Source: a virus (lineage: Duplodnaviria > Heunggongvirae > Uroviricota > Caudoviricetes). From it: a stretch of 28,227 nucleotides of DNA. This document shows positions 2,153-5,311 of this stretch, piece after piece (the first letter of the stretch is position 1; each line of letters begins with the position of its first letter). Below the pieces are notes generated by a model, which was given only the letters and a program-made list of their open reading frames with translations, ran no database searches and was not told where the DNA came from. Both the position numbers and the translations under genes were made by a program. The DNA is taken from positions 1 to 28,227 of the IMG/VR virus record IMGVR_UViG_3300045988_125232; one strand, given 5' to 3'.

Positions 2153-2514
2153 TATGCTCCAGCCTCCGGTGCTTTTGGCATTACTGCCCAGTGAGTGATA
2201 TTGACGTTTTCAAGGTCCCCGACCTGAAATGTCCACTGCCAGTCTCCGGTTTCTTTTTGTCCCCAGGTGTACCAGAGAGAACGCCAGCCAATTAGCCAGC
2301 CTTCTCCGTTAGCATCGAATAACAAAACACTTTCATTTGCTGGTGGCAGTTCAGTTGACACTGGTATTACTTTGTTTTCCAGTGCCGCACATTTAGCTTC
2401 AAGCGCATCGAATTTACGCACCAGGTATTCAGCATCCGTTTCATTCACTTTCAGATCTCGCGGTACACATTTCCCGCGAAGAAACCCTTCCATTTCGAAA
2501 ACATTCATGCGCAT
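2152..2514 (-). CDS. Hypothetical early-left operon protein (120 aa, Trp-rich C-terminal half)
   Basis: ORF coupled to its neighbours; resembles small conserved prophage proteins of unknown function; no catalytic motif. Confidence 0.55.
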   Translation of the reverse strand: MRMNVFEMEGFLRGKCVPRDLKVNETDAEYLVRKFDALEAKCAALENKVIPVSTELPPANESVLLFDANGEGWLIGWRSLWYTWGQKETGDWQWTFQVGDLENVNITHWAVMPKAPEAGA

Positions 2515-3041
2515 TTGCGTAACTCCGATAACTCGTTAAAACGTTCCATAAACATCCCGTAGGCATGGCCTGGCGACAGTGGAATAACTTTGAACATCTC
2601 TGTTGCTGGGATACCTTCCAGTAGAGGCCAGAAAGAGCCATCATCAAGCCCGAGATCGCGGCGTTCGGTTGCCAGCATGATGAGATCGGCATATTTCACG
2701 GGCGTGCTCATAACCGGGGGTAACCCGTATTTCTCACGGATTACGGCGTCTATTTTTTCTTCCATCCGTTTATAGTCAGGAAGAAGGCGTTTCAGTTGCG
2801 CGGGGATGTCCTGACAATACGCTTCTGTTGCATCATGCATTAACGCTTCAAAGGCGAACTCTGGCGCCACAAGTTGACTGCACAGAACGGAATGCTGCGC
2901 CACGCTGTAAAAATCCGGCAAGTGTCCCGCGAAGCGGCAGATATTTGAAAGCGCACCGGCGATATCCTCGATATAAATATCGTCAATGGTGGAGTTGATA
3001 TAATTGAACTTCTTACCGGTAAGAGTCTGGATAAAACTCAT
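2505..3041 (-). CDS. HD-domain phosphohydrolase (YfbR-like 5'-deoxynucleotidase family)
   Basis: 178-aa ORF with a His...His-Asp metal-binding signature (VAQHSV ... LMHDATEAY); AAGGAG ribosome-binding site upstream of the ATG. Confidence 0.75.
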   Translation of the reverse strand: MSFIQTLTGKKFNYINSTIDDIYIEDIAGALSNICRFAGHLPDFYSVAQHSVLCSQLVAPEFAFEALMHDATEAYCQDIPAQLKRLLPDYKRMEEKIDAVIREKYGLPPVMSTPVKYADLIMLATERRDLGLDDGSFWPLLEGIPATEMFKVIPLSPGHAYGMFMERFNELSELRKCA

Positions 3042-3198
3042 CGTTAGTTCTCCTTAATTGGTGCGCTGCACCGCACGATTTTTGGTTGCACGAATCCCTC
3101 GCCATAAGGCGATTAAAAGTTTTGGTTTCGTTTCAGTAAATGCCCCATCCAGAGGCACTTAGTGCAACGGGCGGCTGCCATCGCCAGTTATTTTCCCC

Positions 3199-3283
3199 AC
3201 TCAATTGAAAGCGCGTTCCGGAGGTTTTGGACTTAACGAACTGGCACTTAATGACAAGGGACAGAACGCGCTTTCAGTTGAGT
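3199..3283. repeat. Long imperfect inverted repeat (20-bp arms, about 45-bp spacer)
   Basis: ACTCAATTGAAAGCGCGTTC and GAACGCGCTTTCAGTTGAGT are reverse complements with one mismatch, in the non-coding gap between the HD gene and the moron. Confidence 0.5.
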
Positions 3284-3424
3284 AAAAAGGTGGCTATTCA
3301 TCAGAACATTGTCGCCTTCATTAGGTTTATCTGTTGAAGATCTGTAAGCCGCTTATAAATAAGTAGATATAAGATATTAGGAAAAGAAGAAGGACGTTAT
3401 AGTTTTATTTGTGATGTGCAAAGT

Positions 3425-3455
3425 ATATTTGAATAAAACCCGCCCAGCGGGTTCT
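3425..3455 (-). terminator. Rho-independent terminator downstream of the 198-aa moron gene
   Basis: GC-rich hairpin (AACCCGC...GCGGGTT) followed on the minus strand by a U-rich tract, just past the stop codon at 3464. Confidence 0.5.
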
Positions 3456-3463
3456 AAAGTGTT

Positions 3464-4060
3464 TTAATGATTGTCGTAATAATTAATTGGCTCATCATTT
3501 TTTTGGTCTGGCATAGTTATGGACCACTTTATATTCTTTAGGCTGTTATGTTTTTTATTGACCTTAAGCTCTCTCTTTGCTTCAGAGATAATATCGTCTA
3601 GTAATACTTTTAATTTATCAAGTCTTGACTTGTGGGCATCTATCAACTCTATACTATCAAACTCCCATTGTATAAATAGATTTTCTTCATTTTCAATGAA
3701 TGAACGGATTTTATCCCCACACTCTTCTGTTAAGAATAATGAAGATAGCTCACCTATTCTACTGAGTTTTTCAAGCTCATTAGAGAAAGATTTGCTAAGG
3801 ATTTCATTTTCTTCTTTTGATTTGTAACTAAAGTAGGTTGGGAATTGTGAAGCGTGATGTAACTCATGTTTATACCAATAGTCAGCTGTGTTTTTTAGAA
3901 GATAAACACAGTCAACTAATTGCGTATACAAATCTATTCTTTTGTCCCACCATTTTTCTTTATAATAACGGCCGAGTGCATATCGCGCAGTTAAGTAAGC
4001 TGCGATTGAGCCTGTAACAAGTCCGATAATTACCTTTGATATAAGGTCATGCCAATCCAT
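3464..4060 (-). CDS. Membrane-anchored protein of unknown function (moron; candidate lysogen-expressed exclusion or abortive-infection factor)
   Basis: 198-aa ORF with one N-terminal hydrophobic helix (VIIGLVTGSIAAYLTA), then a charged, Lys/Glu-rich helical body. Visibly AT-rich compared with flanking phage genes, with its own AT-rich upstream region and its own terminator. Confidence 0.7.
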   Translation of the reverse strand: MDWHDLISKVIIGLVTGSIAAYLTARYALGRYYKEKWWDKRIDLYTQLVDCVYLLKNTADYWYKHELHHASQFPTYFSYKSKEENEILSKSFSNELEKLSRIGELSSLFLTEECGDKIRSFIENEENLFIQWEFDSIELIDAHKSRLDKLKVLLDDIISEAKRELKVNKKHNSLKNIKWSITMPDQKNDEPINYYDNH

Positions 4061-4511
4061 TTTTATTTTTCCTACATTATGTTATATAATTGTTCATATC
4101 ATACAATTGTTGAGTATAGATGTCTCGTTATTCATCAACATTTACTCCTGTTAAATTAGGGGGAGTATGTATTAAAAATATTCATCTGGGTCGTCTAAAT
4201 ATTTTTGATAAACTAATAGCAATAACACTATCAATATTGCCTGCCCTCACGTCGTTCTTGCTCTCGCGCGATTTTTAACTAAACACTAGCAGGATTTATC
4301 ATGGTGCTACGCTACATTTACTTGTAGGGAGCTAAACAGATCATTGACGCTGAAAATATTCAAATTGTTAAAGAGCGAAGCGTCCTATGGGCGTTTTGTT
4401 GCTAACGAATCATCTTGGACTTCATATGCCCCAGGCGGCTACTTCGTGGACGTCCTGCCTGTTTGTTGTTTCTCTTGGGTACATTATGTATCTCAAAGGT
4501 ACATTGTCAAG

Positions 4512-4549: not shown

Positions 4550-5224
4550 TTAGGCTTTGATTTTGTATCTTCTTGGTTTTCCTGAGAAAATCACTGTACC
4601 AATTATAGAGCAATTACCGTTGATCTTAATGTAAGGCTCAGGCCAGTTTGGGTTTAACGCTTTGAGATAACGCTGTGTCCCATCTTCTATCAACCTTTTG
4701 AAGGTGGTTTCACCTGTATCGTGCATCAATGCAATAACGTCGTCACCGTGGCAGGCAGGTACTTCAGGATCGACAAAAATCATGTCTCCCGGGCGGTACT
4801 CATCAATCATTGAATCACCTATCACCCGCAAGATATAAGTCATTTCCCCACAGGGGACAGGGCAGGGATACGTTTCTGCTGTGCTCAAATCAACCTCAGA
4901 ATATCCAACTTCTTTCCATGCTCCGGCCTGTACCCATGATATGACAGGGACTAATGTGATTTGTTTATTAGTGATTGAAACATCAGGTTTTTTTGTGATG
5001 TTCGTTGTCTGGTGTTCTTGATCGAGCCATCCGACAGGCAGGTCGAAACATTTTTCGATGTGTCGTGCCATGCTGTCACCGATATTTTTAGTAGCACCAT
5101 CTCCCATAAACCTGCTGGTCTGGGTTGGCTCGCGATCAATCATAGTGGCAAAGGAAGAATTCCCGCCAACACCATCTCTCAGTTTTCTGGCGTTAGACCG
5201 CCGGATGTCATGGATTGTTTTCAT
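4550..5224 (-). CDS. cI: CI-type prophage repressor (HTH plus S24 LexA-like autopeptidase domain)
   Basis: 224-aa ORF. The C-terminal domain carries the Ser/Lys dyad context (VIGDSM ... FKRL) and its end (LNPNWPEPYIKINGNCSIIGTVI) resembles P22 C2 / lambda CI. Divergently arranged against the cro-like gene. Confidence 0.9.
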   Translation of the reverse strand: MKTIHDIRRSNARKLRDGVGGNSSFATMIDREPTQTSRFMGDGATKNIGDSMARHIEKCFDLPVGWLDQEHQTTNITKKPDVSITNKQITLVPVISWVQAGAWKEVGYSEVDLSTAETYPCPVPCGEMTYILRVIGDSMIDEYRPGDMIFVDPEVPACHGDDVIALMHDTGETTFKRLIEDGTQRYLKALNPNWPEPYIKINGNCSIIGTVIFSGKPRRYKIKA

Positions 5225-5239
5225 AACGAAATTAAAACC

Positions 5240-5311
5240 CTTGTACCGTTAAGGTACAAGTATCTTGAAGGTTCATTTCAATCATGTAATATGTACATCG
5301 GAGGTACATAT
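5240..5311. promoter_or_regulatory. Operator/promoter region between the repressor and cro (three dyad-symmetric sites)
   Basis: Dyads read in sequence: CTTGTACC-N5-GGTACAAG, TTGAA-N7-TTCAA and ATATGTAC-N7-GTACATAT. A TAATAT -10-like hexamer and GGAGGT ribosome-binding site precede the cro ATG. Confidence 0.6.

Follow-up and report, generated by a model that had tools for sequence, protein, structure and literature searches.

The window analysed here is the whole 28,227-nt stretch of the IMG/VR virus record IMGVR_UViG_3300045988_125232 (Caudoviricetes), a lambda-like prophage arm, and the element in question is a long inverted repeat, IR1, at positions 3199-3283. IR1 belongs to a family of long hairpins that had not been annotated before. 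The family is widespread in enterobacterial prophages and is kept by compensatory evolution, and in a large group of lambda-like ones its members occupy the non-coding region that separates the immunity repressor and PL, the leftward early promoter, from the first leftward early gene. A sequence-only reading of the window had described a 20-bp near-perfect inverted repeat with a 45-bp spacer, and a repeat search confirmed it: the left arm at 3199-3218 (ACTCAATTGAAAGCGCGTTC) and the right arm at 3264-3283 (GAACGCGCTTTCAGTTGAGT) are 20 nt each and 95% complementary (19/20), which is far beyond chance, and they enclose a 45-nt interior at 3219-3263. The sole position in the stem that departs from Watson-Crick pairing is T3205 versus G3277, a G.U wobble if the RNA is of the + strand and a C.A mismatch if it is of the - strand; the context favours a - strand transcript. 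The same reading had placed the repeat in an early-left intergenic region, and it does lie between the gene for an HD-family hydrolase and an open reading frame (ORF) of 198 amino acids, to the left of the repressor gene.

When the arm was sought in the whole 28-kb window with up to 3 mismatches, only the two arms were found, at an expectation of 0.00 from 100 shuffles. The 103-nt IR1 segment folds as - strand RNA at -35.6 kcal/mol (z = -5.07, with 0/200 shuffles as good) and as + strand RNA at -34.7 kcal/mol (z = -4.00, with 1/200 shuffles as good). A covariance model, R1, was built from the + strand sequences of an alignment of relatives, A1, and its sole match within the window is IR1, at 94.1 bits and an E value of 7e-24. 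Downstream of the stem the + strand reads AAAAAGG and the - strand GGGGAAAAT, and neither has a U-run there; given also the 45-nt loop and a terminator scan that raised no flag, an intrinsic terminator was rejected, and the earlier remark that the repeat, having no U-tract, is not a standard terminator was correct.

Both flanks of the stem are conserved features as well. Beside the left arm lies a pyrimidine run at 3191-3198 (TTTTCCCC; TTCTCC in relatives), which reads as the purine run GGGGAAAA on the - strand and is kept in all sequence types. Beside the right arm lies the A-run AAAAAGG at 3284-3290, which coincides with a homology breakpoint and in relatives is the U-tract of an abutting intrinsic terminator on the - strand; in the window the terminator stem beyond 3290 is replaced by an AT-rich insert. 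On the - strand the flanking purine run is predicted to pair with the U-run across the hairpin, which would extend the helix to ~27 bp.

IR1 forms the right-hand end, that is, the upstream edge, of a non-coding block of ~250 nt (3043-3290) before the first leftward early gene. The 422-nt gap between the HD-family hydrolase gene and the 198-aa ORF, which holds the repeat, was searched for in 5,426 complete E. coli genomes and was present in 21 of them, annotated in none. Sixteen of these copies are identical, 4 show 88-89% identity and align only over 3043-3290, and in one prophage (L003) the match is limited to 3193-3290, which takes in the hairpin and a few bases around it, the sequence beyond being different on both sides. 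Since the alignments stop at 3290 and the guanine-plus-cytosine (GC) content drops there (~3290) from 0.50 to 0.34, the segment 3043-3290 is regarded as a conserved module and the DNA to its right as a replacement. In more than 100 contigs of phages and prophages the block stands ahead of the first leftward early gene, mEp390 being the only cultured phage that carries it, and at least 3 unrelated first genes follow it in relatives. An exact 17-mer of the right arm was found in at least 120 IMG/VR viral contigs, with one match per contig. Conservation of the dyad in related phages had been named beforehand as a check on the repeat, and the dyad is indeed kept in more than 100 contigs, with compensatory changes and in at least 7 types.

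These types were recognized at the same position in relatives, between the TTCTCC-like run and the A-run, and all form stems of 19-23 bp. Type A is that of this window (ACTCAATTGAAAGCGCGTTC), and type B (CACAATTGrrAGCGCGTTC) occurs at many loci. Type C (CACAGATGTAAGCGCGCTCCGG / CCGGAGCGCGCTTGCATCTATG) was found in L160, L187 and L203, type D (CACAACTGGAAGCGCGCTCC / GGAGCGCGCTTTCAGTTGTG) in L179, type E (...GCGCACTC / GAGTGCGC...) in L193, type G (...GCGCGCTC / GAGCGCGC...) in L137 and L215, and type F (ACAAAACAGACAAGAGCA / TGCCCTTGTCTGTTTTGT) in L130, L165, L181 and L200, with L133 also grouped here. Across the IR1 family the outer ends are near CACAAC.../...GTTGTG, the stems are 17-23 bp and the interiors are 34-99 nt. 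The interior carries a core at 3233-3241 (TTAACGAAC; TTAACGA(A)C in relatives), the columns of which are invariant in A1 for types A-E and G. This core is missing from type F, whose arms and interior are unrelated to those of the other types while stem length, flanks (TTCTCC ... AAAAA) and position are unchanged; its interior is a different, GC-rich segment of 50 nt with two covarying inner helices.

Compensatory change was quantified in A1, which comprises 18 representatives and 6 of the 7 arm types. Its stem shows 84.6% standard pairs, versus 27-48% in controls with the pairing offset by 1-3 columns; eight stem pairs are changed on both sides, a number reached by 6/500 shuffles, and the covariation score of 0.190 compares with 0.092 in shuffles (0/500). 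Independently, RNAalifold recovered 18 stem pairs from A1, 6 of them with compensatory changes. Because eight stem positions show such two-sided changes, the structure itself is under selection. Arm type is independent of repressor type and of the first gene: type A stands with an S24 repressor and an HD hydrolase in the window, and with an XRE repressor and a ParB operon in L002. This independence points to a reader supplied by the host and not to a phage-specific one, and the freedom of the arm sequence argues against a reader that is sequence-specific. A protein-binding site in duplex DNA, one of the roles listed in the sequence-only reading, is thus less likely, for the arms differ between phages with complementarity kept and irrespective of the repressor.

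The neighbourhood of the hairpin was surveyed in 99 distinct relatives. In 93 of them the A-run to its right corresponds to the U5 tract of a leftward hairpin that resembles a terminator, with a GC-rich stem of 11 bp, the exceptions being the lineage of the window itself, L086, which has a deletion, and L107 and L112, in which the terminator stem is slightly imperfect. Leftward promoter-like sites lie upstream of the terminator-hairpin pair in L002 (at ~110 nt, with no ORF between) and in mEp390, so that the terminator lies inside the leader of the leftward early promoter PL and not merely at the end of an insert gene. In L002, where that spacing would make the terminator a leader attenuator, the region 4380-4450 carries a promoter-like TTGACA-17-TAGATT between two direct repeats, CAACAACTTTA(A/T)G(G/T)TG, which are operator-like.

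One or two further long hairpins of the family were found farther upstream in 40/99 relatives, and a tRNA-Arg gene within 700 nt in 18/99. In L092, L003 and L069 the paralogue IR2 adjoins a leftward tRNA-Arg(UCU) gene without a gap, meeting it at its 5' end, which indicates that IR2 ends at an RNA processing site. The leftward order in L092 is hairpin 3, a pseudo-tRNA, IR2 flush with tRNA-Arg, the terminator and IR1; this array occupies 6510-7100 in L092 and 4190-4342 in L003, and L069 is arranged likewise. The L092 pseudo-tRNA has a 56-nt insertion and scores 45.9 bits with the Rfam tRNA model, and the first hairpin of the array has an 87-nt interior with two T-arm-like hairpins, GGCAGGTTCAATTCCTGCC and GTCCGTTCAATTCGGAC. 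In the type F interior the - strand carries CGGGCTCATAACCC, which we take to be the anticodon arm of the E. coli initiator tRNA; the tRNA model gave no hit on it, and it may be a fragment or a coincidence. In the window no tRNA (ARAGORN), no IR2 and no abutting terminator were found.

The transcript that would carry IR1 presumably originates from a predicted strong PL-like promoter at 4483-4510 on the - strand (TTGACA-16-CATAAT, 11/12), read leftward from 4510 to 4483 just after the repressor terminator. The promoter is overlapped by TGTAC..GTACA operator-like dyads resembling those between the repressor and cro-like genes. Leftward from it lie the insert gene, its terminator, 146 nt of AT-rich DNA, IR1, a leader of ~155 nt and the first early-left gene. 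The terminator, at 3430-3456 on the - strand (AACCCGC-TGG-GCGGGTT + TTTATT, pair I8), belongs to the 198-aa insert gene; it is situated 146 nt upstream of IR1 in the leftward direction and thus stands, as 3456-3430, between the promoter and the hairpin, and the neighbouring genes are all leftward.

It is tentatively proposed, as the likeliest of the readings considered, that IR1 is an RNA hairpin in the leftward PL transcript that serves as a processing or stability signal for a double-strand-specific, RNase III-type enzyme. We infer that it is RNA and not DNA that folds, that the folding RNA is that of the - strand and that RNase III is the reader. In the proposed sequence of events, a leftward transcript from 4510-4483 would read through the upstream terminator, and IR1 would fold in the read-through RNA over approximately two helical turns, extendable to ~27 bp by the pairing of the U-run with the purine run. 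The duplex would then act as a structure-specific, sequence-tolerant signal for the host double-strand RNase, and cleavage would separate the early-left mRNA and the leader at its head from the PL-proximal RNA, which comprises insert gene, tRNA and terminator, and would set the 5' end and the stability of the early-left mRNA. A double-strand RNase is the simplest reader because the duplex is sequence-tolerant and length-constrained, lies in the path of PL transcription after a terminator, and has a paralogue at a tRNA processing site. The 20-bp stem of IR1, with 19 Watson-Crick pairs and one wobble or mismatch, has the size expected for RNase III (~two helical turns, at least 20 bp), and a minimal RNase III substrate is about as long as the 19-23 bp stems of the family.

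A wider version of this model is more speculative and rather unlikely, namely that IR1 is the first example of a new family of long-stem RNA modules, with stems of ~20 bp and interiors of 35-100 nt, which punctuates PL-proximal RNA in the order hairpin-(tRNA)-terminator-hairpin-leader and, together with the terminator, forms a control point for entry into the early-left (recombination/excision) operon. It would constitute a switch, coupled to processing or modifying the polymerase, that stands in for N/nut, which is apparently missing from these phages. Among the candidate roles listed in the sequence-only reading, the stem-loop proved real, but the computation did not narrow the roles to one; an independent small-RNA gene is unsupported, as no promoter or terminator of its own was found in the scans.

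Several observations weigh against a - strand RNase III-type signal. The outer box CACAAC/GTTGTG and the core TTAACGAAC are over-conserved for a signal that is purely structure-specific, and the window copy has lost its usual partner, the abutting terminator. The left arm is lost from L114 by a 23-nt deletion, the right arm from L194, and the whole hairpin together with leader hairpin D from L218, while all three retain the rest of the leader; hence the element is dispensable in at least some prophages. The core stem of A1 has, among its non-Watson-Crick cells on the + strand, 27 G.T versus 3 A.C, and these positions are C.A mismatches on the - strand in the commonest types. The + strand hairpin is also the more stable one in 54/59 distinct cores.

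The wobble evidence and the gene context disagree, and for this reason the folding strand is ambiguous; four approaches to calling it from wobble pairs gave conflicting answers. Three alignment columns, in sequences that are closely related, account for the + strand bias, and it is weak when all distinct arm pairs are counted, the G.T:A.C ratio being 45:22 for IR1 and 13:11 for the paralogues, with 24 other mismatches in total. The consensus fold of 115 leaders reaches -23.4 kcal/mol on the - strand versus -11.1 on the + strand. The columns of the flank extension show, read on the + strand, 48 A.C versus 0 G.T and pair on the - strand only, and the flanking genes and the tRNA-Arg are all leftward. 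On context, the leftward (-) RNA is more likely to be the one that folds.

The relation of the family to tRNA genes raises the question of whether IR1 is a relic. The family could have its origin in a phage tRNA cassette (hairpin-tRNA-hairpin-tRNA-terminator-hairpin), as hairpins of the spacers or leader; the window copy would then merely hitchhike with the leader and have little or no function. The order of elements in L092, L003 and L069, the 18/99 relatives with a nearby tRNA-Arg and the T-arm-like hairpins in some paralogue interiors all suit such an origin, as do the lack of tRNA, IR2 and abutting terminator in the window and the occurrence of arm-loss variants. However, compensatory change keeps IR1 also in the 81/99 relatives that have no tRNA nearby, which argues that IR1 is under selection on its own. 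The window copy is moreover intact, with 19/20 positions paired, and is identical in 16 E. coli genomes, and neither the Rfam tRNA model nor ARAGORN recognizes IR1. A relic is considered improbable.

An explanation at the level of DNA is likewise judged improbable. It supposes either that IR1 sits at a junction of modules and stimulates or marks recombination among phages, or that a structure-specific protein binds it as a hairpin or cruciform. Homology breaks exactly at the right edge, 3290, together with the drop in GC; L003 shares only 3193-3290 and differs on both sides; and one to three paralogous hairpins stand between variable modules. The stem mismatches are mixed (G.T, A.C and purine-purine), as if neither RNA strand were selected. 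Homologous recombination nevertheless predicts a breakpoint beside any conserved block, the single copy per genome without target-site duplication indicates that the element is not mobile itself, and a 45-nt spacer makes cruciform extrusion energetically unlikely on general grounds. Since compensatory change means that pairing matters, a single-stranded state is required, and transcription is its simplest supply.

The remaining alternatives involve the rest of the leader, which is ~250 nt, highly structured and conserved above the genes that follow it. From right to left it holds hairpin D (3170-3185, - strand, GGCGGCTGCCATCGCC), with stem changes in relatives such as GGCGACTGCAATCGCC in L002, and hairpin C (3137-3161, - strand), whose 10-bp stem has G.U pairs on the - strand only and which is the main helix of the - strand consensus fold of the 115 leaders. 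Hairpin B (3099-3112, - strand, TCGCC-ATAA-GGCGA) is predicted on both strands and has a variable loop and a covarying stem (CGCA/TGCG in L123). Hairpin A (3061-3083) reads GTGCG-CTGCAC-CGCAC with a T-run on the + strand; its loop is invariant across hundreds of contigs and its stem covaries freely, with the variants GCGCT/AGCGC, GCGCC/GGCGC, GCGTC/GACGC and CGCAG/CTGCG. The terminator scan flagged hairpin A as terminator-like on the + strand, in the window as in L002 and L004, so that with its T-run it resembles a terminator acting on RNA antisense to the early-left genes. As a - strand element it is boxB-like and stands 15-20 nt ahead of the first gene's ribosome-binding site, and it also occurs in phages without the long hairpin, including ST64B-like sequences.

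Outside the repeat, the leader 17-mer GGTTGCACGAATCCCTC at 3084-3100 is exact in at least 120 viral contigs and in ~16 species-representative genomes of Enterobacteriaceae, with host genera Citrobacter, Enterobacter, Kluyvera, Buttiauxella, Mixta, Superficieibacter and Pseudocitrobacter. It is better conserved than the flanking genes, and no promoter or known motif was recognized in it.

If the + strand folds, the hairpin would belong to a rightward RNA antisense to the early-left leader, either as a cis-antisense regulator or as the 5' portion of an RNA that goes on into the + strand insert genes of relatives; this is thought very unlikely. Besides the excess of G.T cells and the better minimum free energy noted above, one A1 stem column varies among U.G, C-G, A-U and U-A, all valid on the + strand only, G.U is converted to G-C or A-U in L168 and L207, and the next gene rightward of the hairpin is on the + strand in L002 and L003. 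R1 scores IR1 at 94 bits on the + strand versus 44 on the - strand, an asymmetry that is partly circular because R1 was built from + strand sequences. Against such a transcript, no + strand promoter was found in the leader of the window, L002 or L004, and hairpin A with its T-run would halt + strand transcripts arriving from the left. The wobble bias also fades family-wide, and the - strand is favoured both by the flank extension and by the remainder of the leader.

Antitermination by RNA, in which the hairpin alone or with hairpins D-A would act in cis to modify RNA polymerase or to block Rho, like the put sites of HK022 or an rrn leader, is regarded as a very unlikely role for IR1; polymerases that got past the upstream terminator would in this way be able to finish the long early-left operon. 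Neither the window nor L002 shows an N-like gene in the stretch from PL to the early-left genes, the leader stands at the head of the operon and is better conserved than the genes after it, and the conserved loop and covarying stem of hairpin A are a signature of a specific RNA-protein contact. Yet the architecture and copy number of put differ, IR1 lies downstream of the terminator that it abuts, freely varying arms are unusual for an RNA that docks on polymerase, and similarity to HK022 is lacking. Finally, a chance dyad without biological meaning, which has in its favour only the general frequency of short dyads in AT/GC-mixed intergenic DNA, is refuted by the 0/100 shuffles with a second arm copy, fold z scores of -4 to -5 and compensatory conservation in more than 100 contigs.

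A number of known element classes were tried and rejected. The families of Rfam 15 (including AgvB, AsxR, C4, DicF and tRNA) gave no match on the window at gathering thresholds and no overlapping match over 3190-3290 at E up to 10, and Rfam gave none on the homologous hairpins of L003, L004, L092, L133, L165 and L181. A tRNA-like element was rejected since ARAGORN found no tRNA in the window and the Rfam tRNA model had no hit on IR1 of any type; the tRNA or pseudo-tRNA of relatives is only a neighbouring sequence. A miniature inverted-repeat transposable element or other derivative of an insertion sequence (IS) would have a target-site duplication and many near-identical copies per genome, whereas the element occurs singly in the window and gives a single match in each viral contig, its copies diverge through compensatory changes, and the flanks TTTTCCCC and AAAAAGG form no direct repeat. 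A lambda-type nut site has boxA and a boxB hairpin of ~15 nt whose purine-rich loop measures 5 nt, and it goes with an N-type protein; the IR1 hairpin is 85 nt, there is no N-like ORF between the PL-like promoter and the early-left genes, and no Pfam or PHROG hit among the window proteins suggests an N protein.

Among DNA-binding or coding candidates, a pair of repressor operators was rejected because the operators are TGTAC..GTACA dyads unrelated to the arms, the type of which is independent of repressor type. For a promoter in the 45-nt interior there was no scan hit, the -35/-10-like fragments picked out by eye lack conservation, and type F has a GC-rich interior. A small ORF in or after the hairpin was rejected, since the one annotated through the leader in mEp390 is closed in the window and the hairpins covary in the manner of RNA helices. 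The consensus for integration host factor (IHF) is a poor match to the interior core, and a parS-like ParB site is contradicted by the lack of a ParB gene in the window. The CA-rich motif ACACAAC brought to mind an AgvB-like anti-GcvB small RNA (sRNA), for which there was no hit to Rfam RF02702; AgvB RNAs are 51-60 nt, have their own terminator and are located in the late region (PMC4104026). A hammerhead-core ribozyme motif was looked for by eye and is not present. The outer 7-mers ACTCAAT/GTTGAGT fit 6/7 and 7/7 of what we take to be the consensus of integron attC sites, RYYYAAC/GTTRRRY; the IR1 stem is almost fully paired without an extrahelical base, the only integrase is the phage tyrosine integrase at 457-1620, and the resemblance is regarded as superficial.

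The closest precedents for the proposed processing signal are RNase III sites, namely the lambda N-leader site and sib and the T7 early RNA sites R0.3-R1.1. They share with IR1 a hairpin of ~20 bp or more, defined by structure, in a leader or intergenic position of a phage early polycistronic transcript, and sib in addition adjoins a terminator crossed by read-through transcripts. T7 sites have an internal mismatch in mid-stem between two helices of ~10 bp, and common IR1 variants show a T7-like mid-stem mismatch flanked by two ~10-bp helices on the - strand. Unlike the lambda and T7 sites, IR1 has a large (38-52 nt) and partly conserved interior and a conserved outer box, CACAAC/GTTGTG; unlike in sib, the stem of the adjacent terminator lies outside the long helix, in which only its U-tract takes part. 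IR1 has no sequence similarity to the lambda or T7 sites, and its cleavage is predicted only.

Repeated hairpin modules at the joints of exchangeable gene modules, where homology breakpoints coincide, are also a feature of T4-type PeSL cassettes, which consist of an early promoter and a terminator-like stem-loop, and of the 'boundary sequences' of lambdoid phages; unlike PeSL, IR1 has a much longer stem and no promoter was found in or beside it. The immunity RNAs of P4 (CI), P1/P7 (C4) and N15 (CB), which base-pair with target boxes of the transcript they come from and owe their maturation to RNase P, resemble IR1 as structured RNAs in an early-operon leader, near terminators and the immunity region, with related copies on the transcript; unlike them, IR1 has no Rfam C4 match, a single copy in the window and no complementary target outside the hairpin. 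The phage mEp390 is classified in the subfamily Hendrixvirinae, to which HK022 presumably belongs as well. The put element of HK022 consists of two adjacent stem-loops of ~70 nt in total, located directly after PL and ~270 nt after PR in two copies per genome, and acts on downstream terminators (PMC9378689). It is, as the IR1 leader would be, a cis-acting structured RNA in the early operon of a lambdoid phage, put itself needing no phage protein, and differs in that IR1 is a single 20-bp stem with a 45-nt interior, present in one copy in 28 kb, after a terminator and without a sequence match. Literature searches on put, mEp phages, AgvB/Pas sRNAs and RNase III in lambdoid early-left operons turned up no account of the element.

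As to the surroundings in the prophage, the integrase gene (457-1620, - strand) is followed by small leftward genes, and the first early-left gene after the leader (2505-3041, - strand) encodes an HD-family hydrolase resembling deoxyribonucleoside 5'-monophosphate phosphatase. In L001, the copy of the prophage in E. coli ECONIH4, a transposase of the ISSpu7 family, IS1634-like, is inserted among the early-left genes at 2415-4025, and a second integrase, internally stopped, lies to its left. The 198-aa ORF (3464-4060, - strand), with no function assigned, encodes a protein with an N-terminal hydrophobic segment that matches PHROG 17948 (unknown function) and had no match in Pfam or PADLOC; it lies within the AT-rich insert 3290-4480 (GC ~0.31-0.34) and is a candidate lysogenic-conversion or defence gene. 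In this slot beside the repressor, relatives carry instead a BRCT-domain protein, an ECs1072-family protein or tRNA-Arg. To the right of the S24/LexA-type repressor (4550-5224, - strand) lie rightward ymfT/ymfL-type genes, and the divergent repressor/cro-like promoter region at 5240-5300 contains the dyads CTTGTACC-GTTAA-GGTACAAG and ATGTAC-ATCGGAG-GTACAT. The same TGTAC/GTACA half-sites thus occur here and at the PL-like promoter, which is consistent with one operator set for this immunity type.

The finding is better supported than an observation from a single sequence could show, and the window copy, having lost its partner terminator, is an atypical one. In lambda-like phages the leftward early operons contain genes for excision, recombination and host killing, and to our knowledge their control is well understood only in N/nut phages and HK022. 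The phages that carry the element have no recognizable N gene, yet a terminator stands between PL and their early-left operon. Because mEp390 is a cultured carrier, the question is directly testable, and L114, L194 and L218 could serve as natural knock-outs of the hairpin. If the reading is true, the RNA catalogues would gain one more family. If the hairpin is a processing or read-through signal, it would offer a handle on how entry into lytic growth and excision is gated in this large, mostly uncultured group of prophages, hosted by Citrobacter, Enterobacter, Kluyvera, Buttiauxella, Mixta and some E. coli.

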